Of a DNA stretch of 64,000 nt, positions 4,436 through 48,853 are shown piece by piece (the first letter of the stretch is position 1; every line of letters starts with the position of its first letter). The notes below the pieces were generated by a model. The model saw nothing but the letters and a program-made list of their open reading frames with translations. It was not told where the DNA came from and made no database searches. The stretch spans positions 4,591,105 through 4,655,104 of the forward strand of contig CAVUGJ010000002.1 in the NCBI GenBank assembly GCA_963740985.1, written 5' to 3'. The stretch is from an uncultured Microthrixaceae bacterium (GTDB lineage: Bacteria; Actinomycetota; Acidimicrobiia; Acidimicrobiales; Acidimicrobilacustridaceae). The position numbers and the translations under genes are program-made.

Positions 4436-4552
4436 GCCGGGCTCCCCGACGCCCAGTCGGGGCGGCAGACGACTGAGCATCGATCGGTTTGATCGGGCAT
4501 CAGCGCAAACGCGGGGTTCTCAGAATCAGAGTTGCTGGGTAATCTGACCTGT

Positions 4553-5951: not shown

Positions 5952-5971
5952 CCTGATCGCCTCTGGTTCAC

Positions 5972-7174
5972 ATGCCGATCGAGTTCGATCGTCAGCAGGT
6001 GCTGGCCCACCGCGTCCACATCCACGAGTTCGACCGTCGGGTGGCGCGCCCGGCCGACCTGGCCGTGCTCGACCTCGGCATCCAGGACACCCCCGTGGGC
6101 GCGGCTCGCCAGGCTCTGGCCGCCAGGCTGCCCGGGTCATCCGCTTCCGACGGTGCCCGGTCCGACGACGCCCTGTTCGGGGGAACCGACCCGCTGGCCC
6201 TGGTGTGGTCGCACCGCGGCGCGCCCCACCTGCACCGCGCCGATGATCTGGTCGGACTGGCCCGGGCGCTGTGGCCGTGGTCCGACGCCGACGCCCGGGC
6301 CCGGATGGGACGGGCGGCCACCCGGCTGGTCGGCGCCGGGATCGCACCCTTGGAGGGCCTGCGCCTGACGGCGGAGGCCTGGCACTCGGTGGTGACCGGG
6401 TCGGGACCGGGAGGCCTGACCAAGGGGGAGATCAGTGCGGCCGTGACCGAGCGCCTGCCCGACGAGGTGCCCGAGTGGTGTCGCGGCTGCCAGAGCACCC
6501 ATGTCAACGACCTGCTGTTCCGACTGGGGGCACTGCCCGCCGGGGCTCGGATCGCGCCCGGTCGTACGCCGCTCACCTTCGAACCCGTCGCCCGGTGGGC
6601 GGGGGTGCCGGACAGCCCCGCGGGCACGGACCGCATGGTGTCGTCCTATCTCCGGCTCCTGGGGCCGGCCACCGCGGTGGAGGCGGCCGGGTTCCTGGGG
6701 ACCACGGCCAAGGCCATCGGCGTCGGCGCGGGCGGTGGGCCGGGGGGCGGGCTGGGGGACTGGCCCGAGGGCCTGGTCCAGGTTCGCGTGGATGGCCAGG
6801 ATCGGTGGATGGCCGAGACCGACGTGGAGGAGGTGGCCGCCGCCCCGGCGCCCGAGATGGTGCGGCTGGTCCCGGCCTCAGATCCCTACCTGCAGACCCG
6901 GGATCGGGACTGGCTGGTGCCCGACCCTGCGCATCGCCAGGCGTTGTGGAAGATCCTGTCCAGCCCCGGTGCCGTGCTGGTGGACGGGGAGGTGACCGGG
7001 ATCTGGCGGGCCAAGCAGACCAAGGCGACCAAGTCGGATCCCGAGGGGGCGCTGGTGATCACCGTCGAGGCGTTCGGGCGGCTGTCCCGGACCACCCGGG
7101 GGGCCCTCGACCAGGAGGCCCTCGGGCTGGCCCGGGTGAGAGGACTGGAGACAGCCGAGGTCCGCGTTCCCTAG
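5972..7174 (+). CDS. Winged-helix DNA-binding domain protein, YcaQ/AlkZ-like (possible DNA glycosylase family)
   Basis: 400-aa ORF. QVLAHRVHIHEFDRR...LVWSHRGAPHLH near the N-terminus and ...GAVLVDGEVTGIWRA... near the C-terminus resemble the YcaQ family. High GC3 throughout. Confidence 0.6.
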   Translation: MPIEFDRQQVLAHRVHIHEFDRRVARPADLAVLDLGIQDTPVGAARQALAARLPGSSASDGARSDDALFGGTDPLALVWSHRGAPHLHRADDLVGLARALWPWSDADARARMGRAATRLVGAGIAPLEGLRLTAEAWHSVVTGSGPGGLTKGEISAAVTERLPDEVPEWCRGCQSTHVNDLLFRLGALPAGARIAPGRTPLTFEPVARWAGVPDSPAGTDRMVSSYLRLLGPATAVEAAGFLGTTAKAIGVGAGGGPGGGLGDWPEGLVQVRVDGQDRWMAETDVEEVAAAPAPEMVRLVPASDPYLQTRDRDWLVPDPAHRQALWKILSSPGAVLVDGEVTGIWRAKQTKATKSDPEGALVITVEAFGRLSRTTRGALDQEALGLARVRGLETAEVRVP

Positions 7175-7183
7175 GGTGATCGG

Positions 7184-7981
7184 GTGCCCACCATCACCGC
7201 CAACGGCATCGACCTCTACTACGAACGAGATGGGCACGGTCGACGCCTGCTCTTCTGCAACGGATCGGGCACCACGCTGGCCACCACCGGCTTCCTGGTC
7301 GCACCCTTCCGCCGCCGATTCGACGTGGTGGCCCACGATCAGCGGGGCCTGGGGCGCACGGCCGTCCCGCCGGGGCCGTACACGATGGCGGACTACGCGG
7401 CCGATGCCGTCGCCCTGCTCGACGCGGTGGGTTGGGAGCGCTGTCGGGTGGTGGGCATCAGCTTCGGAGGCATGGTGGCCCAGGAGCTGGCGGTGACCTG
7501 GCCGGAGCGGGTGGAGCGCCTGGGCCTGCTCTGCACCTCGCCGGGCGGTCCTGACGCCGCCTCCTATCCGTTGCACGATCTGGACGATCTCGACGACCAA
7601 GCGCGGGCCGCGGTGTCGATGCGCATCCTCGACAGCCGCTTCACCCCCGAGTGGCTGGCCACCCACGACTTCGACCGCGCCATCGCCGAGGGCATGGCGG
7701 CCAGAGGCCAGGCCCCCCGCACCGAGGAGCAGCGGCGGGGGGAGGCCGCCCAGCTCGAGGCCCGCAGCCACCACGACGTGGTCGACCGGCTGGGTCGGAT
7801 CACCTGCCCCACGCTGGTTGCGTCCGGGCGCTATGACGGCATCGCGCCGGAGGCGAACGGTCGGACCATCGCGGATCGGGTCCCCGGCGCCGAGTTCCGC
7901 CTGTTCGAGGGTGGCCACGCCTTCTTCGGTCAGGACCCCGAGGCCATCCCGGCCGTGCTCGACTTCCTGGACGAGCCTTGA
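7184..7981 (+). CDS. Alpha/beta hydrolase
   Basis: NGIDLYYERDGHG...HDQRGLGRT...GISFGGMVAQELA (GxSxG nucleophile elbow); 265 aa. Confidence 0.85.
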   Translation: MPTITANGIDLYYERDGHGRRLLFCNGSGTTLATTGFLVAPFRRRFDVVAHDQRGLGRTAVPPGPYTMADYAADAVALLDAVGWERCRVVGISFGGMVAQELAVTWPERVERLGLLCTSPGGPDAASYPLHDLDDLDDQARAAVSMRILDSRFTPEWLATHDFDRAIAEGMAARGQAPRTEEQRRGEAAQLEARSHHDVVDRLGRITCPTLVASGRYDGIAPEANGRTIADRVPGAEFRLFEGGHAFFGQDPEAIPAVLDFLDEP

Positions 7982-8457
7982 ACGACCGGGAGGCCGAGGC
8001 GCTCGACTGGGTGGACATCAACCGTCTGCTGGCCCGATACGCGGACGTGGTCAACCGCCGCCAGTGGTCCGAGCTGGACGAGCTGTTCCGGCCCGACGCC
8101 GAGGTGGTGGTGGACCGGGTCACCGCCGATCCCATCCAGATGACCGGTCCCGCGGCGGTTGGCGCCTTCATCGGGGGCGCCATCGAGCGCTTCGGGTTCT
8201 TCGAGCTGGCCGTGCTCAACGCCCGGATCAACGTGGGCGCCGGCGGTGATCCGGACCGGGCCCGCGGGCGGGTCTTCATCACCGAGATCCGCCAGGATCG
8301 CCAGGGTGCCGCCTGGTCGCACACCTACGGCGTCTACCACGACACCTACCGCCGGGTCGACGGCGCCTGGTGGTTCGCCGATCGGGCCTACCAATCCCTG
8401 GCCCGCACGGGCGCCGAGACGGCTTTCGCCTTCCCCTCGAGTGCCAACCTTGACTGA
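7978..8457 (+). CDS. Nuclear transport factor 2 (SnoaL-like) family protein
   Basis: 159-aa ORF with a TTG start overlapping the upstream stop (TTGA). INRLLARYADVVNRRQWSELDELF is a typical SnoaL_4-like N-terminus. Confidence 0.7.
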   Translation: MNDREAEALDWVDINRLLARYADVVNRRQWSELDELFRPDAEVVVDRVTADPIQMTGPAAVGAFIGGAIERFGFFELAVLNARINVGAGGDPDRARGRVFITEIRQDRQGAAWSHTYGVYHDTYRRVDGAWWFADRAYQSLARTGAETAFAFPSSANLD

Positions 8458-9511
8458 CCAGGACTGCATCGACGGCTTGGTCCGTTCGCGGGTGGCGGTC
8501 ACGGGCGCCACCGGGTTCATCGGGGCCCACACCACCCTGGCCCTGCTCGAGGCCGGCCATGCGGTCACCGCCCTGGTGCGCGATCCGGCGCGGGTGGCGC
8601 GCACGCTGGGGCCGCTGGGGGTGTCCGCCGGGGACCTGGATCTGATCATCGGAGACATGAGCGATGCCGATGCCGTGGGTCGAGCCCTCGACGGCGCCGC
8701 GGCCGTGGTCCACTCGGCGGCAGTGGTGTCGCTCGAGAAGGCCCGGGCCGCCGAGGTCCTGGCCGCCAACCCCGAGGGCACCCGCATCGTGGTCGAGGCC
8801 GCCCTGGCCCGCCACCTCGACCCCATCATCTACGTGTCCAGCACGGCGTCGCTGTTCCGTCGCGGCCTCACCTCGCTGCACACCGACCTGGCGCCAGCCG
8901 AGTTGTCGAGCGCCTACGGCCGCTCCAAGGCGCTGGCCGAGACCTGGGTGCGCCAGCGCCAGGACGAGGGCGCGCCCATCGTCATCACCTACCCGGCGTC
9001 GGCCATGGGGCCGCCGGCAGGTCAGGCTTCCGGAGAGGTGTCGGCCGCGGTGGCCACCCATCTGCAGATGGGCTGGCTGCCCCTGCCTCGGGCCGGCTGG
9101 TCGATCGTGGACGTGCGGGACCTGGCCGCCGTGCACCTGGCCGCACTGGTGCCGGGCCACGGTCCGCGCCGCTACATGTGCGGTGGGGTCTACATGACCA
9201 TGGCCGAGCTGGGGGTGATCTACCGCGAGCTGACGGGTCGACGCATGCCGGTGGTGGCGTCGTCGGCCGCGGCGCTGCGCGGTCTGGGTCGTACCGTCGA
9301 CGCCTTGGGGCGCTACGTCTCGTTCGACACCATCTTCACCGGTGAGGCCATGGACATCTTCACCGGATGGGTGCCGACCGACGACCAGCTCACCCACGAC
9401 GAGCTGGGGGTGGCCTGGCGCGATCCCCGCCTCACCCTGGCCGACGAGATCGGGGGCCTGGTCGACGCCGGGCGGGTCAGCTCGGCCCAGGCCGGCGCGC
9501 TCGGCGGCTGA
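8450..9511 (+). CDS. NAD-dependent epimerase/dehydratase family (extended SDR) protein
   Basis: VAVTGATGFIGAHTTLALLEAGHAVTALVRD is a Rossmann GxxGxxG motif; YGRSK carries the catalytic YxxxK. The start is TTG 8450 or GTG 8441, inside track ORF 8159..9511. Confidence 0.8.
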   Translation: MTDQDCIDGLVRSRVAVTGATGFIGAHTTLALLEAGHAVTALVRDPARVARTLGPLGVSAGDLDLIIGDMSDADAVGRALDGAAAVVHSAAVVSLEKARAAEVLAANPEGTRIVVEAALARHLDPIIYVSSTASLFRRGLTSLHTDLAPAELSSAYGRSKALAETWVRQRQDEGAPIVITYPASAMGPPAGQASGEVSAAVATHLQMGWLPLPRAGWSIVDVRDLAAVHLAALVPGHGPRRYMCGGVYMTMAELGVIYRELTGRRMPVVASSAAALRGLGRTVDALGRYVSFDTIFTGEAMDIFTGWVPTDDQLTHDELGVAWRDPRLTLADEIGGLVDAGRVSSAQAGALGG

Positions 9512-9523
9512 CCGCGGCGCCCG

Positions 9524-10120
9524 TCAGCGCAGCGCCGACCAGAGGGTGTAGACGGCCAGGCCGACCAGGATCACCGCGGTGATGATCCGCAGGGTGGTCA
9601 CGTTCATGAACCGCAGCAGGCTCTGACCGCCCACGACGGCCAGGCCGGCGACAGCCCACAGGGCCAGCACCGCTCCCACCGCCACCGACAGCGGCTGGTG
9701 GTACTTGGCGGCCAGGTTGGCGGTCAGGATCTGGGTCAGGTCGCCCCACTCGGCCAGGAAGATCACCACGAAGGCGGTGACCGCCACCCGCCGATGGCTC
9801 TGCTCCTCGCGGTCCACCAGCGCCACCTCGGCCTCCTCATGGGCCGATTCGTTGCGTGCCTCGCGGATGGCCAGCACGGCGCCGAGCAGGAACAGCCCGC
9901 TCACCACCAGGTCGACGGCGCGGTGGCTCAACACGCGGAACAGGGCCACGCCCACCGTGACGGCGATGACGACGTGCACCAGGAAGGCGGCCGCTGCCCC
10001 CGCCCACACGGCCAGCGGACGCCCCTTGGTCGACAGCACCAGGGAGGCGAACATCGTCTTGTCGGGCAGCTCGCCCAAGAAGATGATCGGGAACACGGCG
10101 ACGACGACGGCGAGGTTCAC
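9524..10120 (-). CDS. TMEM165/GDT1 (UPF0016) family cation transporter
   Basis: Two copies of the E-x-G-D-(K/R) motif (FLGELPDKT and FLAEWGDLT) in a 198-aa, 6-TM protein. Confidence 0.85.
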   Translation of the reverse strand: MNLAVVVAVFPIIFLGELPDKTMFASLVLSTKGRPLAVWAGAAAAFLVHVVIAVTVGVALFRVLSHRAVDLVVSGLFLLGAVLAIREARNESAHEEAEVALVDREEQSHRRVAVTAFVVIFLAEWGDLTQILTANLAAKYHQPLSVAVGAVLALWAVAGLAVVGGQSLLRFMNVTTLRIITAVILVGLAVYTLWSALR

Positions 10121-10135
10121 GGCCGAGGGGACGGA

Positions 10136-11725
10136 TCAGATCACGTAGCGGTCGGCCAGGGCCAGGTCCGCGTCGGCGAAGTTGCGCAGGGCCGGCTGGG
10201 TGGCCACTCGGGGGGTGGTGATCAGCCCGCGGAAGGTTCCGTCGTCCAGGCCTCGTGCCAGGTACTGGTCGATGGCCGACCACTGGACGAGCCACTTGTC
10301 CATGGCATCGTCGCCGCCGGCCTGGGCCGGGTCCGGGATGTCGGCCAGGATGCGGCCGAAGGCCCGCCGGTGCACGGCCAGGGCGTGGGTGCAGGTCACC
10401 GGTCCGCAGGTCTGGAGCCACTGGCATCCGTCGGCCAGGGGGAACTCCCGGGCGTGCACGCACGCGCCCAGGAAGCACAGGTCCCACTCCTGGTCGGCCA
10501 GCTCGCGGGTGGCGCCGGCCAGCACGTCCAGGGTGTCGTCCAGGAACACGGCGTCGTCCTCGAGGACCAACACGTTCTGGTAGCCGCGCCGGTCGGCCTC
10601 GGCGATCATGGCCCGCCACGACAGGGTGCAGCCCCGGTGGTGGTTGTCCGGGGTGGCCACCGCGGGGAAGCGCTCGACGCGCCAGGCGATGTCGAGCACC
10701 GCGTAGCGGTGCTGCGCGGCCTGCCAGCGGTCGGTGGCGTCGTCGAGGTTGAGGGCGAAGATGGCGTCGAAGAAGGAGAACGGGTTGGCCACCTGGCGAG
10801 CGGTCTGATCCAGGATGGCCTGGGGGTCGGCCTCCGGCAGGGCGCCCAGGTGCTGGCGGAAGTGGTCCTCCATGGGGGCGACGTCCCATCCCACCTCCCC
10901 CCAACCCAGGCGGTAGTTGCGGATGCGATCCTCCCAGGTGGGCCGGTAGGGCGGACCGCTGGGCCGGGTGAAGCGGTGAGCCCAGCGCACGTCGGGATGG
11001 CACAGCACCCGCCCGCCGCCCTGGCGGACCTTCTCGTGCAGGTACCCCTCCTCGCCGCCGAACCCTCGCAGTCGGGGATTGAGGCCGGGCCAGGCGTCGG
11101 TGCGGCAGGCGAAGAGCCCCAGTCCCTGCATCCCGATGTCGAAGGGCTCCACGCCGGGTTCGTCGATCCGGGGATCGGTGGCCCACTGCCCGTACATCCC
11201 TCCGCCCCAGGTGCCGGCGAAGTGGGTGCCCACCACGTGGCTCAGATCGTCGGAAAGCAACGGACCCTGGATCAGGTCGCGGCTGTCGGGGTGGCGGTCG
11301 AACCAGTCGAGGATGGCGGCCAGGCCGCCGGGGGCCACCAGCACGTGCGAGTCCACGCAGACCACCACGTCGGCGTCGGCCTGGCGGAAGATGAGGTCGC
11401 GGGCGGCGGTGGACCGGTACCCCCGGAAGGGGATGTAGCGCAGCCCGGGCACCCGCTGATCCAGTCCCTTGAGGTCGTGCGCGGCCTCGCCTTCGGGATG
11501 GTTGTCCAGGATCACGAAGCTGAGATCGTCGGCCACCTCGGGGTGGTACAGGCGGATGGCCTGCACCGTGAACCACACCCCGTCGAAGTCGTCGAAGGTG
11601 GCCATGCCCACACACAGGCGGCGATGGCCGACCGGTGGGGTGGCGTCGGGGATGACCCGGGTGGCCTCGTCGGCTTCGGCCAGCTTGCGGGTGAGCTCGC
11701 CGAGGAGCTGCTGAGCGTTGGACAC
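10136..11725 (-). CDS. Two-domain glycosyltransferase (N-terminal GT2-like, C-terminal GT25-like)
   Basis: N-terminal half: CVGMATFDDFDGVWFTVQAIRLYHP...FVILDNHPEG...VCVDSHVLV. C-terminal half: FDAIFALNLDDATDRW...HRGCTLSWRAMIAEA...VLVLEDDAVF (GT25-like pattern). Confidence 0.7.
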   Translation of the reverse strand: MSNAQQLLGELTRKLAEADEATRVIPDATPPVGHRRLCVGMATFDDFDGVWFTVQAIRLYHPEVADDLSFVILDNHPEGEAAHDLKGLDQRVPGLRYIPFRGYRSTAARDLIFRQADADVVVCVDSHVLVAPGGLAAILDWFDRHPDSRDLIQGPLLSDDLSHVVGTHFAGTWGGGMYGQWATDPRIDEPGVEPFDIGMQGLGLFACRTDAWPGLNPRLRGFGGEEGYLHEKVRQGGGRVLCHPDVRWAHRFTRPSGPPYRPTWEDRIRNYRLGWGEVGWDVAPMEDHFRQHLGALPEADPQAILDQTARQVANPFSFFDAIFALNLDDATDRWQAAQHRYAVLDIAWRVERFPAVATPDNHHRGCTLSWRAMIAEADRRGYQNVLVLEDDAVFLDDTLDVLAGATRELADQEWDLCFLGACVHAREFPLADGCQWLQTCGPVTCTHALAVHRRAFGRILADIPDPAQAGGDDAMDKWLVQWSAIDQYLARGLDDGTFRGLITTPRVATQPALRNFADADLALADRYVI

Positions 11726-11743
11726 GGGTGGTCGGTCGAGGCC

Positions 11744-12124
11744 CTAGAAGAGCCCGTTGCCGCCGCGGTAGGCGGCGGCGGCCGAGGCGTAGCGGGCATC
11801 GTCGGAGGCCACGAACTGCCCTTCGTCGTCCCACATCCCGTCCAGGGGGAGTAGGGGAGCCCCGGTCTGGTGGTCGAAGTCGTCGCCGTGGGCACCGGGG
11901 TCATCGCTGGGCCGCGTGAGCTCGATCGTGGGCCGCAGCCGGTCCCACCAGACGCCGTAGGGGAGGTGGCGGGCCCGGACCGTCACCGCGCCGAGGTGGT
12001 CGCGGGCGCTGGCCAGGGCCACGTAGGTGGTGAACGGGAACGGCTCGTCGGTCCGCTCGGTGCCCACCACCGCCACGCCCGCCATCTCGGCACGCCGTGC
12101 GTCCTGGCCCATGTCCCCTATCAT
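11744..12124 (-). CDS. Hypothetical protein (about 126 aa, no recognisable family)
   Basis: Very high GC3 on the minus strand (...PFPFTTYVALASARDHLGAVTVRARHLPYGVWWDRLRPTIELTR...GGNGLF*). Co-directional with the glycosyltransferase 18 bp downstream. Start is ATG 12124 or 12112. Confidence 0.55.
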   Translation of the reverse strand: MIGDMGQDARRAEMAGVAVVGTERTDEPFPFTTYVALASARDHLGAVTVRARHLPYGVWWDRLRPTIELTRPSDDPGAHGDDFDHQTGAPLLPLDGMWDDEGQFVASDDARYASAAAAYRGGNGLF

Positions 12125-12133
12125 GCCAGCCCC

Positions 12134-12403
12134 ATGGCCAGCTCCCCGACCGACCGACCGGTGCGCACCGATGGCCTCGAGATCAACGAGGTGGCCGATG
12201 GACTGGTGGTCTACCAGGCCGCGCCCGAGCGGGTGCACTACCTGAACAACACCGCCGCGGTCGTCTTCGAGCTGTGTGACGGCGCCCGCACCGTGCCCGA
12301 GATCGCCGATGCGGTGGGCGAGCTCTTCTCGCTGACGCGCGCCCCCACGGCCGAGGTCGAGGCCTGCCTGGTGGAGCTGGCGGCCAAGGGGGTCGTGCAA
12401 TAG
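12134..12403 (+). CDS. PqqD family protein (RiPP-recognition-element type peptide chaperone)
   Basis: MASSPTDRPVRTDGLEINEVADGLVVYQAAPERVHYLNNTAAVVFELCDGARTVPEIADAVGELF...EVEACLVELAAKGVV is a classic PqqD pattern (xLNxTAxxIWxLCDG). The part of track ORF 11870.. upstream of 12134 is antisense to the neighbouring gene. Confidence 0.8.
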   Translation: MASSPTDRPVRTDGLEINEVADGLVVYQAAPERVHYLNNTAAVVFELCDGARTVPEIADAVGELFSLTRAPTAEVEACLVELAAKGVVQ

Positions 12404-12414
12404 TCCGCTTCCGG

Positions 12415-13269
12415 TTGCTGTGGCACGAGATCGTGATCGACGTGGACGGGGCAGGCCCCGAGGTGGTCGATCTCGTGCGCTACCTGGTGTCGTCCGCCGA
12501 ACACCCGCTCGATGCCCTGGCCCCCATGCACTACCGCGTGCGTGCCGTCGACCACGGGTGGATGGTGGAGGAGGAGGGGGATCACCTCGAGACGCTGGAC
12601 GATCCCGAGGCGCTGCTCGACCTGCTCTATCGCCGGGTGCACCAGCGGGCCTTCGAGTTGGCGTCGCTGCGAGGCTGGGTACGGCTGCACGCGGCGGTGA
12701 TCGATTTGCGGCCGGACGCCGGGTCCGACCCGGTGCGGCTGGCGCTGGTCGCCCCTTCGGGGACGGGCAAGACCACGCTGGCCTGTCGCCTCCTGCTCGA
12801 CGGGCAGGAGGCGCCGGCCGACGAGAGCACCCTGGTGCGTGACGGCGTGGCGTTGCCCGTGGCTCGCCGGTTCCACCTCAAGCCCGGCCTGGAGGACGTG
12901 GTCACGGGACTGGCCGCCCACACGGTCGGCCTGCCCAGCCTGGCCGACGGGTCGGTCCGGGCGTTCGATCCCGCCGTGGCCGGATTCACCTGGGTGGTGC
13001 AGGAGCGTCCCGTCGATCACGTCGTCCTGGTGGAGCGCCACGCACCCGGGGCATCGGATTCGGTCGCCGCCATGCCCACCTGGCTGGAGCCGACCAGCGC
13101 GGTGGAGGCCATGCCCGTGCTGGTGGATCAGTCGTTCCCCCACCTGGAGCCCACCGGGGAGTTGCTGGCCCAGGTGGCCACCCTGCTGCGCCAGGCGCAG
13201 TGTTGGCGCCTCGGTTTGGGCTCGCTACCCGAGGCCAGCATCCTCCTACGGGATCTGGCCAGCCGCTAG
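12415..13269 (+). CDS. HPr kinase-related P-loop protein (HprK-related kinase)
   Basis: 284 aa with Walker A LVAPSGTGKTTLA in the C-terminal half. Size and context (PqqD upstream, nucleotidyltransferase downstream) match HprK-like kinases of RiPP-type clusters. Confidence 0.65.
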   Translation: MLWHEIVIDVDGAGPEVVDLVRYLVSSAEHPLDALAPMHYRVRAVDHGWMVEEEGDHLETLDDPEALLDLLYRRVHQRAFELASLRGWVRLHAAVIDLRPDAGSDPVRLALVAPSGTGKTTLACRLLLDGQEAPADESTLVRDGVALPVARRFHLKPGLEDVVTGLAAHTVGLPSLADGSVRAFDPAVAGFTWVVQERPVDHVVLVERHAPGASDSVAAMPTWLEPTSAVEAMPVLVDQSFPHLEPTGELLAQVATLLRQAQCWRLGLGSLPEASILLRDLASR

Positions 13270-13357
13270 CATCTCTGGCCAATGTGTCTGAGGCGTTCGC
13301 GCCCAGGCGAGCTGATCTGTTCGGACAGCAAGATTCGTCGAAAGAGGTTGGGTGCAC

Positions 13358-13650
13358 ATGAGCGAGCAGTCGGAAACCGATCCCCTGGGGGGAGACCGCC
13401 GAGCTTTTTGAAGAAGATGGCCGTGGCGGGCTTCGCGGTTCCCGCGGTGGCGACCTTCTCGACCGTCGGCATCGAGGCCGCGTTCGCCCAGACGGCCAAC
13501 GCCTCGGGTACGACCACGACCACGGCGGCCAGCCCGACCACCACCGCCGCCTCCACCACCACGGCCGCGCCGACCACGACGACGACCACCACGGTCCCGC
13601 CGACCACGACGACGACCACGACCACCACCACCCCCGAAATTCCGCGGTGA
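13358..13650 (+). CDS. Small poly-Thr/Pro protein with a twin-arginine signal (about 97 aa once a -1 shift at the T5 run 13405-13409 is applied)
   Basis: ATG 13358 (GAGG 10 nt upstream) gives MSEQSETDPLGGDRRAF, then TGA. Shifting -1 in the TTTTT run gives DRRAFLKKMAVAGFAVPAVATFSTVGIEAAFA|QTANASG... (Tat consensus, h-region, AxA site). The predicted mature part is 53 aa with 29 Thr. Without the shift the ORF starts at ATG 13417. Confidence 0.6.
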
Positions 13651-13687
13651 GGTCGGGCGAGCGCCGAGCTCGCCGTCGACCGGGTTC

Positions 13688-14896
13688 GTGAGCCGCCCGC
13701 CGTCCCAAGCCGTCACCGCGGACGAACGTCAGCTCCTCGCCGCCGCCTTGCACCCAGTCGGGTCGGGCGGCGGCACCGCGTCCGGCCCCGCCTGGCATCG
13801 CCGGGCCTGGGACGGTCCGGCCGGCGCGGGCGCACTGCACCTGGCCGCAGCCCACGATCTGTTGCCGGCCCTGTGGCGGGCCGAGGTGGACCGGGGCACC
13901 TGGACCGAGTTGCCCCCCGACGCCTTCGACGTGGTGCGGACCCGCTTCGCCGGTGGCACCACCCAGCCCGCCCTGCTGGCGCAGCAGGCCCATGCCGCCA
14001 ACCGGGTCCGGGTGGCCGACCTGCTCGACCAGGGCTCGGCAGTGCTCGACGCTCTGGCTGAGGCAGGCATCGATGCGGTGCCGCTGAAGGGGCTGCACGC
14101 GCTCCTTGCCGGCTGGTGGGCCGATCCGGCCAGCCGAGTCATGCGCGACCTCGACGTCCTGGTGGGCGAGACCCAGGCCAACGCGGCCGAGGCGGTGCTG
14201 TCGGGGTTGGGCTACGAGCCGCTGGCTACGGGGCACGACGACTACGGCGACCACGAACGACCGGCTCTGCACCTGCCCCGACGCGACGGCTCCGTCGAGC
14301 TGCACACCGCGCTGGTGGTGTCGCGCTGGCAAGCGGTCCTGCCCGCGTCCGGCGTGCTGGCGGCGGGAGCGCCCCTGTCCACCACCGACGCGGTGATCCA
14401 CTCGATCGCCCACGCCCAACTCCACGACGAGGCGCACCTGCTGGCCCGGCTGCCGTGGCGGGCGCTGCACGAGCTGGCGGTGGTGGCCCGGGGCCCCAGC
14501 GGGCCGGAGGTCGACTGGGATCGGGTACGCCGCCAGTTCACCGCCGTGGGGGCGGTCGCCGCGCTCGACGCCCATCTGTGGCTGGCCATCGACCTCTTCG
14601 CAGCGGAGGTGCCCCGTCCCGCGGGCACGTGGCGCCCCCGTCTGCACCAGTGGTGGAGCGAGACCCTCATGGCCCACCCATCGTGGGCACCGACCTACGA
14701 ATCGGCAGTGTTCGCGCCTCGTGCGCTCTCGGCGCCGCGGATGCGCCAGTTGTACGGCGAGGGCCCGTTGTGGGTGCTGCGGGGCCGGCACGTGACCACG
14801 GCGATGACGACGGCGGTGGCCGGGCGAATCGGCCGGGCCTCAGCCGGCCGAGCTCCAGGCCCTGGTCGACCTGAGCGACATGACCCGCTGAACTAG
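13688..14896 (+). CDS. Nucleotidyltransferase family protein (uncharacterised NTP_transf_5 type)
   Basis: 402 aa. ...GIDAVPLKGLHALLAGWWADPASRVMRDLDVLV...AVLSGLGYEP... matches the DxD/'DLDLLV' core of the PF14907-type family, from memory. Confidence 0.6.
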   Translation: MSRPPSQAVTADERQLLAAALHPVGSGGGTASGPAWHRRAWDGPAGAGALHLAAAHDLLPALWRAEVDRGTWTELPPDAFDVVRTRFAGGTTQPALLAQQAHAANRVRVADLLDQGSAVLDALAEAGIDAVPLKGLHALLAGWWADPASRVMRDLDVLVGETQANAAEAVLSGLGYEPLATGHDDYGDHERPALHLPRRDGSVELHTALVVSRWQAVLPASGVLAAGAPLSTTDAVIHSIAHAQLHDEAHLLARLPWRALHELAVVARGPSGPEVDWDRVRRQFTAVGAVAALDAHLWLAIDLFAAEVPRPAGTWRPRLHQWWSETLMAHPSWAPTYESAVFAPRALSAPRMRQLYGEGPLWVLRGRHVTTAMTTAVAGRIGRASAGRAPGPGRPERHDPLN

Positions 14897-15774
14897 GCCT
14901 GCGTCCCCATCCAGCTGGGTGAGGGAGCGGGGACCCGTTCGAGGGTCGAGCTCACGGGGCCGAACCGGTCCGATCCGGCCTGCCAGTCCTGCCAGGCCGA
15001 CTCCACCTCGGCCCTGTCCCGGGCCACGAAGTTCCACCACATGAGGATCTCCTGGTCGAACGGCGCGCCGCCCAGCAGGAGGGCCCGCGTGGGCTCGTCG
15101 GTGTCGAGGCGTAGTTCCTGGCGACCGGCCCCGAGGTACGCCAGCTCGTCGGATGCCACCCGGTTGCCGTCGACCACCACGTGGCCGGCCAGCACCACCA
15201 GGCCGTGCTCGTGGCCGGGCTCCAGGGGCAGCTCGACCCGTCCGGCCAGGGCCAGATCGGCGCCCATCACGTCGTGGTCGCGCCGGGCCGGCGAGGTGAC
15301 CTCGCCGAGCGTGCCCACCAGCACCTGGGCGTGGCCCTGGGTCAACTCGAGACGGGGGAGCTCGGCGTGGTGCTCGAACGCGGCCGGACCGTGGCGGGTG
15401 GCGTCGGGCTGGGCCACCCAGAGCTGAACGCCGTGGATGTTGGGCGCGGCCAGGCCGCGGCCGTCCTCGGCATGGGCCACGCCGCGGCCGGCCGTCATGA
15501 GGTTCAGCTGGCCCGGGCGGATGGGCTGGTCGGACCCGAGGCTGTCGGTGTGGACCAGCTCGCCGTCGAGCAGCCAGGTGACCGTCTGCAAACCCATGTG
15601 GGGGTGGGGCCCGATCCGGGTGGCCGTCTCGGGGGTGACGGGGGTGGGGCCGAAGTGGTCGAGAAAGCACCACGCCCCGATGGTGCGGTGGGTGCGTCGG
15701 GGCAGGGCTCGACGCACGGTCGCCCCACCCACCTGGGCCGTACGGCTGGAGGTGACCTCGACCACGGGTTCCAT
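14893..15774 (-). CDS. Pirin family protein
   Basis: MEPVVEV...AWCFLDHFGP...GPHPHMGLQTVTWLLDGELVHTDSLG...NLMTAGRGVAHAE is a bicupin pirin signature. The start is ATG 15774 inside the longer track ORF. Confidence 0.9.
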   Translation of the reverse strand: MEPVVEVTSSRTAQVGGATVRRALPRRTHRTIGAWCFLDHFGPTPVTPETATRIGPHPHMGLQTVTWLLDGELVHTDSLGSDQPIRPGQLNLMTAGRGVAHAEDGRGLAAPNIHGVQLWVAQPDATRHGPAAFEHHAELPRLELTQGHAQVLVGTLGEVTSPARRDHDVMGADLALAGRVELPLEPGHEHGLVVLAGHVVVDGNRVASDELAYLGAGRQELRLDTDEPTRALLLGGAPFDQEILMWWNFVARDRAEVESAWQDWQAGSDRFGPVSSTLERVPAPSPSWMGTQA

Positions 15775-15928
15775 CTGCCCATTCTGCCGGGACGACGATC
15801 GCTCACGTCCAGGGGGAGCGGACCGAGTGGCGCCGAGGGCTCGATGGCCCCAGACTGACCGGGCAGACCGAGCGGATACGGGCCCTGGCCGGCTCCCTCG
15901 GGCGACCGACGATGGGGGACCTTCACGC

Positions 15929-17530
15929 ATGCATCGTGCCTCGCGGCTCCTGGTCATCGCCGTGGTGTTGGCCGGCGTGACCCTGGTATCCACCGCCCCG
16001 GCCCACGGCCGTGCCTCGGCGGCGCCCGCATCCCGGCTGGTCCGGGTCGGGGCCACCGATCTGGCCGCCGACGGTCCCATCGGCCACCAGGGCCGGTGGC
16101 TGACCGACGCGTCGGGGCGGGTGGTCATGCTCCACGGCGTCAACCTGGTGGCCAAGGGCATGCAGTCCCCGGCCCAGCGCGGCTTCGACGACGACGACAT
16201 CGCCTGGCTGGCCGACAACGACTTCGACGTGGTCCGCCTGGGCCTGGTGGCCGCCGACGTGATGCCCACCCCGGGTGTGATCGACACGGCCTATCTGGAC
16301 TCGTTCCAGTCCACCGTGAACAAGCTCACCGCCGCTGGCGTCCTGGTGCTGGTCGACCTGCACCAGGACGGCTGGGGGCCGACGTTGGGCTCTGACGGCT
16401 TCCCGGACTGGATGACCATCACCAACGGCGCCACCAACACCCACACCGGGTTCCCGCTGTACTACCTGACCAACCCGGCCATCCAGGCTGCCTTCGACAG
16501 CTTCTGGACCGACGCCGCCGGCCCCGGAGGCGTGACGCTGCAGGACCGGGTGGCGGCCATGTTCGGAGCCCTGGCCGACCGGTTCGCGTCCAATCCGGGG
16601 GTGCTCGGCTACGACCTCATCAACGAGCCCTGGCCGGGCTCTACCTTTGCCGACTGCATCAACCTGCCCGGCGGGTGCCCCACCCTCGACCACGACCGGT
16701 TGGACCCGTACTACGCCCGCATGGACACCGCCCTGAGGGCTGCAGGCGACCACCACCTCGCGTTCGCCGAGCCGTGGACGTTGTTCAACTTCGGTCAGTC
16801 ACAGACCAACATCGGCTTACCCGGCAGCGACCCCGACAGCGGCATGGCCTTTCACTCCTACACCGCCGACGTCGCTCGGGAGCCTGATGTCCTGGCCAAC
16901 GCCCAGGCCTGGTCGACCAGCACCGGCGGCGCGCTGGTGGAGGGTGAGTTCGGAGCCACCCAGGACCCGACCTCCATCGATCGGCAGGTGGACGAGACCG
17001 ACGGGGCCCTGGTGCCGTGGATCTGGTGGTCCTACGACGAGGAGGTGGTGCCGGACCTGACCTTGCCGCCAGGTGGGAGCAACCTCAACGCCGCGGTGGC
17101 CGACGCCCTGATCCGCCCCCATCCGGTGCTGGTGGCGGGCACACCCACCTCCCAGGCCTTCGACGGGTCCACCCGGACGATGACGCTCACCCAGTCCACG
17201 ACGACGCCGAACGGGGAGCCGTCCGCCCCCGGCACGGCCACGGTGGTCGAGGTGCCCGTCCGGCCCTATCCCGACGGGTGGCACGCGGTGGTCACGGGCG
17301 GGACCGTCACCTCGGCACCGAACGTGAGCCCGTTGACGGTGGTGCCCGATCCCGGAGCCTCCACCATGTCGATCACCGTGGAGCCAGGCGCCGCGCCCGT
17401 CACCACGACCGAGGCCCCCACGACGACGGCGGCCCCCGGCGGCTCGTCGACCACCACTGTGGCCCCCGCCGGGGTGCTGCCCGAGCCGGTGGCCGTGCCC
17501 GTGGCCGGCGAGCCGGCGTTCACGGGCTGA
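15929..17530 (+). CDS. Secreted glycoside hydrolase family 5 (endoglycosylceramidase/cellulase-like) with a Thr/Pro-rich C-terminal tail
   Basis: Signal peptide MHRASRLLVIAVVLAGVTLVSTAPAHG. GVNLVAKG..., DLINEPW (acid/base Glu) and EGEFG (nucleophile Glu) are present. The C-terminus reads VTTTEAPTTTAAPGGSSTTT. Confidence 0.8.
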   Translation: MHRASRLLVIAVVLAGVTLVSTAPAHGRASAAPASRLVRVGATDLAADGPIGHQGRWLTDASGRVVMLHGVNLVAKGMQSPAQRGFDDDDIAWLADNDFDVVRLGLVAADVMPTPGVIDTAYLDSFQSTVNKLTAAGVLVLVDLHQDGWGPTLGSDGFPDWMTITNGATNTHTGFPLYYLTNPAIQAAFDSFWTDAAGPGGVTLQDRVAAMFGALADRFASNPGVLGYDLINEPWPGSTFADCINLPGGCPTLDHDRLDPYYARMDTALRAAGDHHLAFAEPWTLFNFGQSQTNIGLPGSDPDSGMAFHSYTADVAREPDVLANAQAWSTSTGGALVEGEFGATQDPTSIDRQVDETDGALVPWIWWSYDEEVVPDLTLPPGGSNLNAAVADALIRPHPVLVAGTPTSQAFDGSTRTMTLTQSTTTPNGEPSAPGTATVVEVPVRPYPDGWHAVVTGGTVTSAPNVSPLTVVPDPGASTMSITVEPGAAPVTTTEAPTTTAAPGGSSTTTVAPAGVLPEPVAVPVAGEPAFTG

Positions 17531-17545
17531 GCCGAAACCCGCCGA

Positions 17546-18820
17546 TCAGAACAGCCCGTCGCCCCAGTGCTGGCCCCGGCTGAGACCCGGCGGGCACGCG
17601 AACAGCGCGCCGCCCGTGTGCTTGATGTACTCGTTGAGGGCGTCGTGGACTCCGAGGCGTTGCTGGAGCTGGATGAATTGAGCCGGCCGCTTCATGTAGG
17701 CCAGGAAGAACAGCCCACCGAGCAACGTGCCCCGGATCGGGTCGATGCCGTCGGTGTAGGAGTAGCCGCGGCGCAGGATGCGCAGCCCGGCGTTCTCCTC
17801 GGGGCTGGCCAGGCGGATGTGAGCGTCGGCGGGGATGACGGGTTGGCCGTCAGCGCCGTTGGCGCCGAAGTCGGGCGTGTCGAACTCGGCGTGGCCGGTC
17901 AGCGGGGCCCCCGACTCCTTGGCTCGGCCGATCACGTTCTCCTGGTCCGACAGCACGTCGCGGTCCCAGTTCTCGATGAACATCCGGATGCGCCGCGCCA
18001 CCAGGTACGACCCGCCCCGCAGCCAGGACTGGTCGGTCTCGTCGCCCACCCACACGTAGCCGTCCATCTGATCGGTGGCCTGGGCCTTGATGTTGCGGGT
18101 GCCGTCCTTGAAGCCCAGGAGGTTGCGGGGGGTGGCCTGGCTGGTGCTGGTGGTGGAGGTGCGACCGAACCCCAGCTCCATCCAGTTGTGCGCGACCACG
18201 CCCATGCCCAGGCGGGCCAGGTTGCGCACGGCGTGGAAGGCCACCAGCGGGTCGTCCGAGCACGCCTGGATACACAGGTCGCCTCCGGTGTAGGCCGGAT
18301 CGAGCTCCTCGTTCGGCAAGGGTGGCAGGGTGGCCAGCAGGGCCGGCTTCCTGGCGGCCAGGCCGAGGCGCTCGTCGAAGAACGAGGGCCCGTACCCGAT
18401 GGTGATGGTCAGGCCGCCCACGGGGGAGCCGACCGCTTCGCCGGTGTCAAGTGGAGGTGCCTGGGGGTTCGAGCTGTCGCCCACCAGCTCGCCCCGGGTC
18501 ATCTTCTCGGCGGCGTCGGTCCAGTCGTGCAACAGATCCCGTACGTCGCTGGCCCGGACGCCGTCGACCAGGTTCAACGACCCGAAGGCCAGCCGGTCCT
18601 GGGCGGGGGTGGCGATGCCGGCCTGGTGGGGGCCGTAGAAGTCGACGGTGGACGACGACGGTTCCGTCGGGGCCTCGGTGGCGTTGGCCACCGCCACCCC
18701 GCTGCCCACCCCCACGGCCAGCGCGCCGCCCCCCACGGCACCCACGGTGGCCAGGAAGCGTCGGCGGGACACGCCTGTGTGCGGCGTCGGCTCCTGGTCG
18801 CCGCGGGCGTCGTCGGGCAC
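17546..18820 (-). CDS. efeB: Dyp-type peroxidase / deferrochelatase EfeB (Tat signal)
   Basis: SRRRFLATVGAVGGGALAVG is a twin-arginine signal and the C-terminus is Dyp-like (...GTLLGGLFFLAYM...). It is the last gene of the efeUOB arrangement. Confidence 0.85.
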   Translation of the reverse strand: MPDDARGDQEPTPHTGVSRRRFLATVGAVGGGALAVGVGSGVAVANATEAPTEPSSSTVDFYGPHQAGIATPAQDRLAFGSLNLVDGVRASDVRDLLHDWTDAAEKMTRGELVGDSSNPQAPPLDTGEAVGSPVGGLTITIGYGPSFFDERLGLAARKPALLATLPPLPNEELDPAYTGGDLCIQACSDDPLVAFHAVRNLARLGMGVVAHNWMELGFGRTSTTSTSQATPRNLLGFKDGTRNIKAQATDQMDGYVWVGDETDQSWLRGGSYLVARRIRMFIENWDRDVLSDQENVIGRAKESGAPLTGHAEFDTPDFGANGADGQPVIPADAHIRLASPEENAGLRILRRGYSYTDGIDPIRGTLLGGLFFLAYMKRPAQFIQLQQRLGVHDALNEYIKHTGGALFACPPGLSRGQHWGDGLF

Positions 18821-18823
18821 GGC

Positions 18824-20002
18824 TCAGCTCACCTGTTGGGAGATCTTGGACAGGGCCTCGGCGTAGGCGTTCACCGCGCCCGACAGCACCTTGCGCTGCG
18901 GGGCGGTGACCGTCGAGTAGTCGACGTAGCTGGTGTTCAGATAGCCCGGGGTGGCCTGATAGGGCGCGAGCGCGGCCAGTACCGCCTGGTCGCGCTGGGT
19001 GATGAGGGCCAGCGTGGCGGGGCTGTGAGCCTGGAGGTAGGGCGTGAACAGGGTGACGATCTCCTGGGCGCCGTCCACGTTGGCCCGGAAGGTGGGCAGG
19101 TCGACGTTGGAGTAGCGCTCCTCCTCACCGCTGATCTTGGAGTCGGCCGCCTCGTTGATCAGATCGGTGGCCCCCGCCGCCATCTCCAGGGGGCTGTACT
19201 GGCCGGAGGACACCAGCGCCTGGAGCTGGGTCTGGTGGGTCACCAGGTCGGCGCACAGCGGCGCCGCCCCGTCGAGGGTCTTGGTCTGGAACAACAGCTG
19301 CTCGATCCGGTGAAACCCCACGAACTGAGCCGGATCGGTCACCGGGTTCTCCCAGCGCCCGTCGATCTGCGTGTCGAGATCTCCCCAGATCTCGGCCACC
19401 GGCTCGATGTGCTCGTAGTACTGGCGGGCCGGCGCATAGGCCAGCTGGGCCTGGGTCAGGTCGCCCGAGGCGATGGCGTCGCAGAAGGCCCGGGTGTGGG
19501 TGATCAGGTCGCCCACGTTCTGGTTGACGTAGGTGTTGTAGCCGGCCACGGCGGTGACCAGCTGGGGATCGGACTGCCAGCTCGCCTTGGTCGAGGAGCC
19601 GGTGACCTCGAGGTCGGCCGTGGACTGCTTGGCCCCGGGGCAGCTGATCTTGTAGGAGCCGGTCTGGAGGGTCACGGTGAAGCCGCCGTCGAGCCCGGGA
19701 GTGAGGTTCTCCTGCTCACCCAGGATGTGCGACAGGTCGTGGGTGCGCAGCTCGGCCTCGGAGACCGCGTCTGCATCCTTGTTCGAGACCTGGAACTCGA
19801 TGGAGCCGGCCGGGACCGAAGCCGGGGTAGGGGCACATCCGGCCGAGGTGAGCACCACCTTGACGGTGGGCGAAGACGATCCACCTGAGCCCGACGTCGC
19901 ACCGGTGGCGGTCTTCGACGAGCTGCCGCAGGCGGCGGCCACCAGGACCAGGGTCAGGCCCAATGTGGCCGCGATCCACGTCGTGGGTCGGCGGGTGGTC
20001 AT
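18824..20002 (-). CDS. efeO: Iron uptake system component EfeO (lipoprotein; cupredoxin-like N-domain plus imelysin/M75-like domain)
   Basis: Lipobox LVAAAC. A cupredoxin-like region (VPAGSIEFQVSNKD) is followed by an imelysin-like region (...YYEHIEPVAEIWGDLD...HRIEQLLF). Start ATG 20002 overlaps the efeU stop. Confidence 0.85.
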   Translation of the reverse strand: MTTRRPTTWIAATLGLTLVLVAAACGSSSKTATGATSGSGGSSSPTVKVVLTSAGCAPTPASVPAGSIEFQVSNKDADAVSEAELRTHDLSHILGEQENLTPGLDGGFTVTLQTGSYKISCPGAKQSTADLEVTGSSTKASWQSDPQLVTAVAGYNTYVNQNVGDLITHTRAFCDAIASGDLTQAQLAYAPARQYYEHIEPVAEIWGDLDTQIDGRWENPVTDPAQFVGFHRIEQLLFQTKTLDGAAPLCADLVTHQTQLQALVSSGQYSPLEMAAGATDLINEAADSKISGEEERYSNVDLPTFRANVDGAQEIVTLFTPYLQAHSPATLALITQRDQAVLAALAPYQATPGYLNTSYVDYSTVTAPQRKVLSGAVNAYAEALSKISQQVS

Positions 20003-25143: not shown

Positions 25144-25175
25144 CCCGACCAGCCCTTTCGGGCCGGCCGGGAGAG

Positions 25176-25555
25176 TGGAGCTGGAGGGAATCGAACCCTC
25201 GTCCGTCAAGTGGTCACCACCCGTGCTACGACCATTCCCGGATCACGGCCTTGCGGCTGCCGTACCGCCGGGTCAGTGGAGCTTGCGCTCACCGCCTGGT
25301 CTTTCCCAGATGTCAGCGGTCTTTCACGCCGTCAGCGGTCTCTCCCTGCGGTCCTCCACTGCTTCTGTTGCCGGGCGGCAGTGGACAGGCCCCGCGTGCC
25401 ATTGCTGGTCGCAGTGACTCTCTACCGTCTGACTAGGTCAGGCTGCGAGAGCGAACTCGCCATCGGCGGTTCTTTGGGTGCCCCGTTTCAGGAGTCTGAG
25501 CAACTCCGGTCGCACGATGCGGCTCCCGGTCCCAACGTCGAAACCGATCAGCCCC
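25176..25555 (-). ncRNA. ssrA: tmRNA (SsrA)
   Basis: The minus strand starts GGGGCTGATCGGTTTCGACGTTGGG and ends GAGGGTTCGATTCCCTCCAGCTCCA (tRNA-Ala-like acceptor/T-arm; CCA not encoded). The tag ORF GCC GAT GGC GAG TTC GCT CTC GCA GCC TGA encodes ADGEFALAA*. smpB is adjacent. Confidence 0.9.
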
Positions 25556-48839: not shown

Positions 48840-48853
48840 CTGCATCGGAAGCC

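Follow-up and report, generated by a model that had tools for sequence, protein, structure and literature searches.

A PqqD- and glycosyltransferase-containing gene cassette of uncultured Acidimicrobiia points to an undescribed route to a secreted mucin-like peptide

Introduction

Among the described systems closest to the one studied here are the phospho- and phosphoglyco-lasso peptides, peptides made by ribosomes and then modified after translation (RiPPs) in which a kinase acts on the linear precursor and a nucleotidyltransferase adds a hexose to the phosphate (PMC8498205), a precedent that an earlier note on this DNA had given correctly. In this study, we have explored a six-gene cassette at positions 10136-14896 of a 64,000-nucleotide stretch of DNA (the window) from an uncultured Microthrixaceae bacterium of the class Acidimicrobiia. 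The cassette encodes a PqqD-family protein, an HprK/PEPCK-fold kinase, a short threonine-rich precursor with a twin-arginine translocation (Tat)-type signal, a PF14907 nucleotidyltransferase-fold protein and, on the opposite strand, an orphan protein and a two-domain glycosyltransferase (GT529). On balance, we think it probable that this cassette is a RiPP-like pathway whose small product is a glyco(phospho)peptide, mucin-like and either secreted or bound to the surface.

With the lasso systems (paeninodin with PadeK; pseudomycoidin with PsmK/PsmN) the cassette shares a PqqD-type protein, an HPr-kinase homologue and a PF14907-type enzyme beside a small precursor gene, and in both, kinase and nucleotidyltransferase come on top as tailoring enzymes. 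There are also differences. The cassette has neither cyclase nor B2 protease, and an ABC-transporter pair stands beside one clade only (loci L005 and L019); its precursor has a Tat-type signal and a poly-Thr core with no C-terminal Ser; and its constant partners are dedicated glycosyltransferases, whereas the kinase and nucleotidyltransferase are optional. The same pairing of kinase and PqqD is found in HPr-rel-A (TIGR04352 kinase with TIGR04353 PqqD), which provides the best or near-best NCBIfam matches for both cassette proteins; we know of no description of its substrate. The earlier note had mentioned the HPr-rel-A system. Both proteins fall far below its cutoffs, the kinase with 36 bits where 200 are required and PqqD with 23 where 35 are required: they are not equivalogs, belong to a separate Acidimicrobiia clade, and are relatives rather than members.

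On the side of glycosylation, the best structural matches of GT529 are protein O-glycosyltransferases, namely the collagen hydroxylysine galactosyltransferase COLGALT1 (GT25) and the mucin-type polypeptide GalNAc-transferases (ppGalNAc-Ts, GT27), and the presumed acceptor in the cassette is an unstructured repeat rich in Thr. In eukaryotes, these enzymes are lumenal membrane proteins that act after translocation, the ppGalNAc-Ts having a lectin domain in addition, whereas the cassette enzyme would work in the cytoplasm before export, apparently with a recognition protein as its guide. In glycocins (sublancin, made with SunS), a GT-A (GT2) enzyme attaches sugar to a ribosomal peptide in the cytoplasm, as we propose here, and one protein of our collection, the GT2-TPR protein of locus L024, has what we take to be a SunS-like architecture. 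A glycocin is a folded peptide, stapled by disulfides, that bears one or two sugars, has a double-Gly leader and an ABC/C39 exporter, and is not known to involve a PqqD; the double-Gly leader, the C39/ABC exporter and the stapled fold are absent from the cassette. In serine-rich repeat glycoproteins (GtfA/B, SecA2/SecY2), dense O-glycosylation of Ser/Thr in the cytoplasm is followed by accessory Sec (aSec) export, which is the logic we propose here, namely to glycosylate in the cytoplasm and then use a special export route. These are very large LPXTG adhesins of Firmicutes that leave via aSec, in contrast to the cores of about 50 residues and the Tat signal of our Acidimicrobiia cassette, which has no homologous components.

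Precursors that bear signal peptides have been described as highly unusual among RiPPs (bufferins/oxazolins and RiPPs of the lipoprotein pathway; PMC12452194, PMC11626156, PMC13056109). In them a general export signal replaces the classical leader, as we propose here, but their signals are of the Sec or lipoprotein type and come with MNIO enzymes and DUF2063, whereas the cassette combines a Tat-type signal with PqqD and glycosyltransferases or kinase. Our literature search, whose coverage mostly excluded subscription journals, returned no description of an arrangement of Tat signal, PqqD and glycosyltransferase around a peptide, and two papers that mine RiPP recognition elements (RREs) mention RRE-glycosyltransferase fusions in generic terms only.

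Results

Organization and recurrence of the cassette

The genes at 10136-14896, in DNA of about 71% G+C, were taken from the list of open reading frames (ORFs) and a plot of G+C by codon position, which support six genes, two on the minus strand and four on the plus strand. The features are as follows (aa, amino acids; GC3, G+C at third codon positions).

10136..11725, minus strand: two-domain glycosyltransferase (GT529), 529 aa; N-terminal GT-A domain with D125-S-H127 (DxH), C-terminal GT25-like domain
11744..12124, minus strand: orphan ORF, 126 aa (longest start), directly upstream of the glycosyltransferase; GC3 frame supports coding
12134..12403, plus strand: PqqD-family protein, putative RiPP recognition element, 89 aa; PF05402
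12415..13269, plus strand: HprK/PEPCK-fold P-loop kinase, 284 aa; Walker A APSGTGKTT
13340..13347, plus strand: Shine-Dalgarno-like GAAAGAGG, read from the sequence, 10 nt before the ATG of the precursor gene
13358..13650, plus strand: precursor peptide gene, frameshifted here; repaired product of 97 aa with acidic N-terminus, DRRAFLKK, h-region, AFA/Q and 53-aa core
13358..13488, plus strand: leader and Tat-type signal region, 44 aa once repaired; signal-peptidase site predicted by inspection after AFA (13486-13488)
13405..13409, plus strand: T5 run with one base missing, from the alignment with relatives
13489..13647, plus strand: core (QTANASG, Thr runs, PEIPR), 53 aa with 29 Thr, presumed modification target; GC3 0.95-0.97 in frame
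13656..13674, plus strand: GC-rich hairpin GGCGAGC-N5-GCTCGCC just past the stop codon; could serve as an attenuator or in processing
13688..14896, plus strand: PF14907 (NTP_transf_5) nucleotidyltransferase-fold protein, 402 aa; DLDVLV

PqqD, kinase, nucleotidyltransferase, orphan and glycosyltransferase all lie where the earlier note had placed them, and its domain assignments are supported by profile hidden Markov models (HMMs) and predicted folds. Of the models that it had named, PF05402, PF14907 and GT2 matched above threshold, and TIGR04352, TIGR04353 and GT25 matched below their cutoffs. It had counted the Thr residues of the mature part rightly (29 of 53), but had taken the ORF of about 97 aa to be intact, and in the window this ORF is split by a 1-nt deletion in the T5 run at 13405-13409.

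We pooled 27 non-redundant related loci, each with at least about 1.2 kb of flank. PqqD is present in all of them, and next to it stands, in 27 of 27 and with no counter-example found, a small gene of 69-143 aa with a twin-arginine motif (RRxFLKK or a close variant) followed usually by a Ser/Thr-rich tail. The kinase is present in 19 of the 27, and the small gene adjoins it in all 19, so that the recurrence which the earlier note had proposed as a check was found for both partners. Only 60 homologues of the kinase are detectable in 5.8 billion proteins, and on every readable contig a small ORF of the same design follows directly after it, down to 37-40% kinase identity. When one genome per GTDB species was searched with a DNA pattern for RRAFLKKMA, 13 stretches were found, ten directly after PqqD and kinase and two in unrelated proteins; at L017 the kinase is visible before the locus ends, on the same contig as L001, which has PqqD and kinase, and at L014 a true family peptide stands at the very start of the locus, its upstream side lying beyond the locus edge. 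A second pattern, KKM..F[AT]VP, gave 26 further true members in metagenomes. Patterns derived from the kinase alignment proved too degenerate, as none of the 600 matches that their scan of GTDB genomes returned was a true relative. Where the records name a host, it is an uncultured member of the Acidimicrobiia (Microthrixaceae, Acidimicrobiaceae), and many of the hosts come from a single long-read project of metagenome-assembled genomes (MAGs).

The cassettes fall into the following types.

Type A: orphan and GT529 divergent from PqqD-kinase-peptide-nucleotidyltransferase (window, L001-L006, L018, L030, L036)
Type B: PqqD-kinase-peptide-GT2-methyltransferase, with extra glycosyltransferases upstream (L007, L014, L015, L020)
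Type C: GT529 facing peptide-PqqD-nucleotidyltransferase, without kinase (L028, L054)
Type D: only GT529, peptide and PqqD (L022, L023)
Type E: glycosyltransferases-PqqD-GT1-peptide-GT2/TPR (L024, L025)
Intermediate: PqqD-kinase-peptide-GT2-nucleotidyltransferase (L011)

The constant set is the peptide, PqqD and at least one glycosyltransferase; kinase and nucleotidyltransferase are tailoring add-ons. The earlier note had centred the cassette on these two enzymes, and they are indeed present here, but they are accessory, since L022 and L023 have neither and L028 and L054 have the nucleotidyltransferase without a kinase. In L007, L020 and L024 other glycosyltransferases occur instead, with a methyltransferase, L023 has an additional PqqD-glycosyltransferase fusion, and in type E the tail of the peptide is built of GNQT/PNQT repeats. 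The earlier statement that lasso cyclase (Asn-synthase-like), B2 transglutaminase-like protease and ABC exporter are missing holds within about 7 kb in the annotated cassettes, with the exception of L005 and L019, where at a distance of about 1.2 kb past the nucleotidyltransferase there come a MarR gene and then two ABC-transporter genes. The flanking genes of the annotated cassettes differ between clades, and the genes that are conserved include neither a leader protease nor an ABC exporter.

A conserved leader and a variable core

Among four close genomes, the ratio of non-synonymous to synonymous substitution rates (dN/dS) of the peptide gene is 0.013-0.09, the lowest in the cassette, as compared to 0.14-0.48 for PqqD, kinase, nucleotidyltransferase, glycosyltransferase, orphan and the flanking GDT1 gene at similar dS. 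By this measure the peptide gene is under strong purifying selection, which together with its recurrence in every related cassette is more than chance would produce. Residues R14, R15, F17, L18, K19, K20, F26, P29, F34, G38, A44, Q45 and S50 are invariant across clades. All 13 sequences of alignment A3 share the motif RR-x-F-L-K-K without change, more divergent members having close variants (RRAFIRR, RRAFIQK, RRSLVKK), and downstream of it follow a hydrophobic stretch and a small-x-small site. By inspection, the features of a Tat substrate (DRRAFLKK, a moderately hydrophobic h-region and AFA/Q) are seen in the orthologues and, after repair, in the window. The h-region residues F26, P29, F34 and G38 are conserved beyond the needs of a generic signal, and this strong conservation suggests that the signal peptide itself is the recognition element.

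The gene also has the make-up of a RiPP precursor: it is short, lies beside tailoring enzymes, and joins a conserved leader to a variable core (in clade B, 90% identity in the leader as compared to 57% in the tail). There are one or two copies per cassette; in L005, an Acidimicrobiaceae MAG, tandem copies at 4125-4409 and 4534-4812 are 99% identical. A profile of the leader (first 55 residues), searched against 1.84 billion proteins, retrieved 420 cluster representatives, nearly all of them small (53-220 aa). About a quarter of the tails are Ser/Thr-rich and about another quarter consist of N-Q or N-x-T repeats; the divergent member P0248 neighbours PqqD and four glycosyltransferases.

The sub-group with the same leader and N-Q/N-x-T repeat tails (GNQT, PNQT, NPNQ; L024 at 5700-6131, P0238, P0245, P0248 and others) has no poly-Thr, also neighbours PqqD and several glycosyltransferases, and may differ in its acceptor chemistry. 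In L023 (8616-8906, minus strand), a Thr/Pro-rich product has a lipobox (LAGC) after a Tat-like h-region; it may be lipid-anchored, which hints at a role at the cell surface.

The precursor gene is interrupted in the window

In the window, the ATG at 13358, with GAAAGAGG in front, opens a frame that starts MSEQSETDPLGGDRRAF and runs into a TGA at 13409-13411 (the frame A stop). The remainder (FLKKMAVAGFAV and onwards, that is FLKKMAVAG to the poly-Thr) sits in the -1 frame, as part of an ORF at 13282-13650, and in the codon-position plot the GC3 signal of the Thr-rich frame begins only near 13370. Loci L001-L004 have uninterrupted orthologues of 96-97 aa that read MSEQSETDPLGGDRRAFLKKMAVAGFAVPAVATFSTVGIEAAFAQTANASG, then Thr runs. 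In the DNA alignment, the relatives have GCG TTC CTG where the window has GC- TTT TTG (GC-TTTTTG against GCGTTCCTG), while TCGAAAGAGGT is invariant in all five sequences (window, L001-L004). The T5 run at 13405-13409 is thus one base short, a 1-nt deletion relative to all relatives. Once a T is added, the frame encodes a protein of 97 aa; its identity to the L003 orthologue is 99%, and between the two genes there are 24 synonymous differences and one non-synonymous difference.

The window holds a second frameshift relative to L003, in a CMAS-like methyltransferase gene (4553-5948, orthologue 90-95% identical, junction near 5002-5004), and in sister MAGs the kinase and glycosyltransferase genes are also split by frameshifts. 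In L018 (5134-5472), L019 (1063-1536) and L022 (8615-8896) the poly-Thr tail becomes poly-His/Asp, ACC ACC being read as CAC CAC. These tails are probably frameshift artefacts of the low-complexity run, and His-rich family members in protein databases may be similar artefacts. Because the relatives are intact, a second gene of the window is frameshifted, sister MAGs carry frameshifts and poly-Thr turns into poly-His, the deletion in the window is most likely an assembly error. Programmed -1 frameshifting at C-TTT-TTG-A was considered and rejected, the relatives having an uninterrupted ORF without the slippery run.

The cassette enzymes

PqqD matches PF05402 (E 5e-8, 33.6 bits, gathering score 23.4) and reaches 23.2 bits (E 1e-4) on TIGR04353, below the cutoff of 35; its score on TIGR03859, a generic PqqD model, is higher, though again below the cutoff of that model. 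A PqqD with 58% identity is found in the kinase-less L022 and L023.

The kinase scores 35.9 bits (E 4.4e-9) on TIGR04352, whose cutoff is 200, and its homologues score similarly (P0018, 39 bits; P0056, 29 bits) and carry PF27840 ScmC. Its family profile matches the HPr kinase 1ko7 (E 1.6e-4), and Foldseek aligns its AlphaFold2 model (pLDDT 91.6) with PEPCK (E 3e-7) and HprK/P (E 1e-5). S115, G116, G118, K119, T121, D136, E137 and S138 (SGxGKT and DES) are invariant. Both profile and predicted fold place the kinase in the HprK/PEPCK-like P-loop superfamily.

The nucleotidyltransferase matches PF14907 with 74.3 bits (E 1.5e-20, threshold 31.2), and its motif KG.H...DP..R...D.D.L, which contains a Pol-beta-type G...D.D, is conserved across cassettes together with DH and E.H. 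It occurs in types A and C and is absent from B, D and E.

GT529 is above threshold for Pfam GT2 (PF00535, E 4.4e-6, 27.2 bits against 23.3) and below it for GT25 (PF01755, E 0.007, 16.6 bits against 24), a family that is recorded on its homologues. Its AlphaFold2 model, built with 45 sequences, has a pLDDT of 93.5. The top Foldseek match is human COLGALT1 (E 1e-19 to 1e-17), which has the same architecture of two GT-A domains and backs the GT25-like second domain; next, for the N-terminal domain, come about 40 entries of ppGalNAc-Ts (T2/T4/T10/T12, E about 1e-13). Sequence identity to the solved folds is only 13-19%, and the ppGalNAc-T match covers the GT-A domain only, over about 320 aligned columns at 16-19% identity. 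The protein falls outside GT27: its second domain is GT25-like and not a lectin, and it has no transmembrane segment by inspection. D125 and H127 are invariant, as expected of a GT-A metal motif (DxD/DxH), and the D-S-H presumably corresponds to the DxH motif of ppGalNAc-Ts. A search of PDB sequences gave nothing for the glycosyltransferase or the nucleotidyltransferase. The GT529 family numbers 1406 homologues, some of which are fused to PqqD (P0116, P0143, P0148, P0160, P0192), in one case with PqqD between both glycosyltransferase domains. Because neither a signal peptide nor a transmembrane segment was seen by inspection, GT529 is presumably cytoplasmic.

The orphan protein has no Pfam, NCBIfam or PADLOC family. 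Its conserved part starts at ...GTERTDEPFPF, and orthologues are found in L001-L006, L018, L030, L036 and L041. Because an HMM built from it matches the N-termini of large glycosyltransferases in L007, L008, L011 and L024 (types B and E among them), we regard it, by sequence, as a glycosyltransferase-associated domain that is part of the system.

Genomic surroundings

The window is colinear with L003 across 4553-20886. The longest-ORF starts of orphan and PqqD lie 9 bp apart (12124-12134), as they do in L003, which means either that the true starts are further in or that the transcripts are leaderless with overlapping promoters. The stem of the hairpin after the precursor stop codon is retained in L001-L003 with a varying loop; its folding energy does not reach significance (z -0.48), and among distant cassettes the hairpin shows no conservation. 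A promoter and terminator scan found none, PADLOC gave no defence-system match, and an Rfam scan of the window returned nothing at the cassette and only a tmRNA and a tRNA elsewhere, namely a tmRNA gene (tag ADGEFALAA) at 25173-25555 (minus strand) and a tRNA-Leu at 48755-48840 (plus strand). Directly past the tRNA-Leu, at 50-52 kb, G+C falls to 0.63, a dip that could mark an integrated element.

In the window, as in L001-L003, the gene for a GDT1-family cation transporter (9524-10120, minus strand) directly adjoins that of the DxH-type glycosyltransferase. TMEM165, the eukaryotic GDT1 homologue, provides Mn2+ for Golgi glycosylation. Because GDT1 is missing from more distant cassettes, the adjacency may be mere synteny.

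On the other side lie a GH5 cellulase gene (15929-17530, plus strand) and an EfeUOB-like iron-uptake operon (17546-20886, minus strand) of Dyp peroxidase, M75/cupredoxin protein and FTR1. The Dyp peroxidase (17546-18820) bears an RRRFL Tat-type signal, which suggests that the organism uses the Tat pathway. The cellulase has a Thr-rich linker near its end and the C-terminus ...PVAGEPAFTG, and an FTG ending is also found in the small proteins with Tat leader (P0233 ...PRFTG, P0235 ...PSFTG, P0240 ...PKFTG); these proteins could have a C-terminal tag for sorting or processing in common, or else the GH5 linker could be a further substrate of the glycosyltransferase.

Discussion

Based on these results, we propose the following pathway. 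The N-terminus of the 97-aa precursor, about 44 residues with the features of both a conserved leader and a canonical Tat signal, would serve as both at once. PqqD would bind it, as suggested by the co-occurrence of the two genes, the PqqD-glycosyltransferase fusions and the known role of PqqD, and would present the 53-aa poly-Thr core to the cytoplasmic enzymes. The two-domain glycosyltransferase, probably with the orphan protein, would then O-glycosylate Thr, a function read from the fold match to ppGalNAc-Ts and COLGALT1. In the clade that has it, the HprK-fold kinase would phosphorylate a hydroxyl of Thr or of a sugar; by analogy, phosphorylation of the cassette peptide is probable. The PF14907 enzyme may decorate the product further, and that it adds a hexose to the peptide phosphate is an analogy only, with PsmK/PsmN, where hexose is added to phosphate. 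The bulky, hydrophilic and unstructured product would exit via Tat, as its signal implies, and signal peptidase would remove the leader after AFA. Cofactor-containing Tat substrates have proofreading chaperones that bind their signals, and we speculate that PqqD plays a similar role. As to the cargo, Tat accepts unstructured hydrophilic proteins of 100-120 aa (PMC6708511).

Two ideas of the earlier note gain from this comparison: that the poly-Thr peptide is the substrate is supported by its recurrence, its leader/core pattern and its constraint, and that the product is mucin-like by the COLGALT1/ppGalNAc-T fold matches and the PqqD-glycosyltransferase fusions. More tentatively, and with rather more doubt than confidence, we suggest that the cassettes form an undescribed RiPP-like class, in which a Tat signal doubles as the leader read by PqqD, PqqD acts as a proofreading-type chaperone until cytoplasmic ppGalNAc-T/COLGALT1-like glycosyltransferases have finished, Acidimicrobiia add kinase and nucleotidyltransferase, and a mucin-type glyco(phospho)peptide leaves fully modified via Tat. 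The cassette would be a case of recognition-element-dependent tailoring of ribosomal peptides, with a fair chance of deserving a class of its own.

Several observations weigh against the pathway as proposed. The window copy of the precursor is frameshifted and could be a true pseudogene. The Tat assignment comes from motif inspection only, GT-A folds are widespread, so that fold likeness is no proof of a peptide acceptor, and in about half of the wider leader family the tails are not Thr-rich. The nucleotidyltransferase occurs without kinase in L028 and L054, which weakens the analogy of phosphate followed by hexose. Finally, the antisense frame of the peptide gene shares its third codon positions, and dN/dS alone cannot pick the strand. 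An ORF filter based on GC3 selected shadow ORFs on the antisense strand of the kinase and peptide genes, and deposited gene calls and tblastn were used instead. We chose the sense strand because of its start codon and Shine-Dalgarno sequence, the signal-peptide features, the direction of the operon, independent gene calls, and the stops in the antisense frame of three relatives (L007, L024, L040).

The foremost alternative is that the system is dead in this genome, with a genuine deletion that leaves the precursor gene a pseudogene. We consider this unlikely, if by no means negligible: the sequence as given does have the T5 run and the in-frame TGA, but the 24 synonymous differences from L003 against a single non-synonymous one indicate selection acting until very recently, an unrelated conserved gene of the window is frameshifted as well, and the frameshifts in sister MAGs, including poly-Thr read as poly-His, follow the pattern of long-read indel errors. 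Were the frameshift real, translation from a TTG (13408) or an ATG (13417) would produce a Sec-like signal (MKKM...) without RR. This, and an h-region far more conserved than in generic signals, as a recognition sequence would be, speak for another explanation that we judge distinctly unlikely, that the N-terminal region is a Sec signal, or only a RiPP leader resembling a Tat signal, with protease release and another export route or an intracellular role. Against it stand the invariance of RR-x-F-L-K-K in A3, with close variants beyond and with the hydrophobic stretch and small-x-small site following, the lipobox that L023 has at the position of this site, and a conserved gene set without leader protease or ABC exporter.

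Slightly less weight still goes to an ordinary exported envelope protein, modified after export, if at all, by Pmt-type mannosylation, with cassette enzymes that act on an envelope glycopolymer or small molecule and are merely co-regulated. Thr/Pro-rich linkers are common in secreted proteins of actinobacteria, the neighbouring GH5 cellulase among them, and HprK-like folds include small-molecule kinases (weak FomB and PEPCK matches were seen). However, PqqD domains are peptide-binding modules and are fused to this very glycosyltransferase family, every type of cassette has the peptide gene within the operon and between enzyme genes, with accessory enzymes exchanged around it, and the leader is conserved beyond the needs of export. 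That the locus is an ordinary lasso cluster, or the small ORF a chance product of low complexity, is hardly credible. PqqD, HprK-like kinase and PF14907 do co-occur in some lasso clusters (PMC8498205), and many spurious ORFs arise in high-GC DNA, but no Asn-synthase-like cyclase or transglutaminase-like protease lies in any annotated neighbourhood, the colinearity with L003 extends well beyond the cassette, and the ORF is conserved, constrained and represented by 420 clusters.

In conclusion, the cassette points to an undescribed route to a secreted, mucin-like, sugar-coated peptide in uncultured actinobacteria. If the proposed pathway is right, a Tat signal used as leader would be a new RiPP logic, only Sec and lipoprotein signals having been reported so far, and pre-glycosylated unstructured peptides would be a new class of Tat cargo. 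Mucin-like peptides with dense O-glycosylation, and possibly phosphoglycosylation, would then be among the products of bacteria, made by enzymes structurally like the mucin and collagen glycosyltransferases of eukaryotes. Substrates would be suggested for the orphan PqqD and HprK-kinase pair and for the PF14907 family, and peptide glycosyltransferases guided by a recognition element would become available for glyco-engineering, in a class that would number 420 or more precursor clusters and over 1,000 glycosyltransferase homologues. Its hosts, uncultured Acidimicrobiia (Microthrixaceae), are abundant in soil and sludge, where the product could affect the cell surface, biofilm or foaming.

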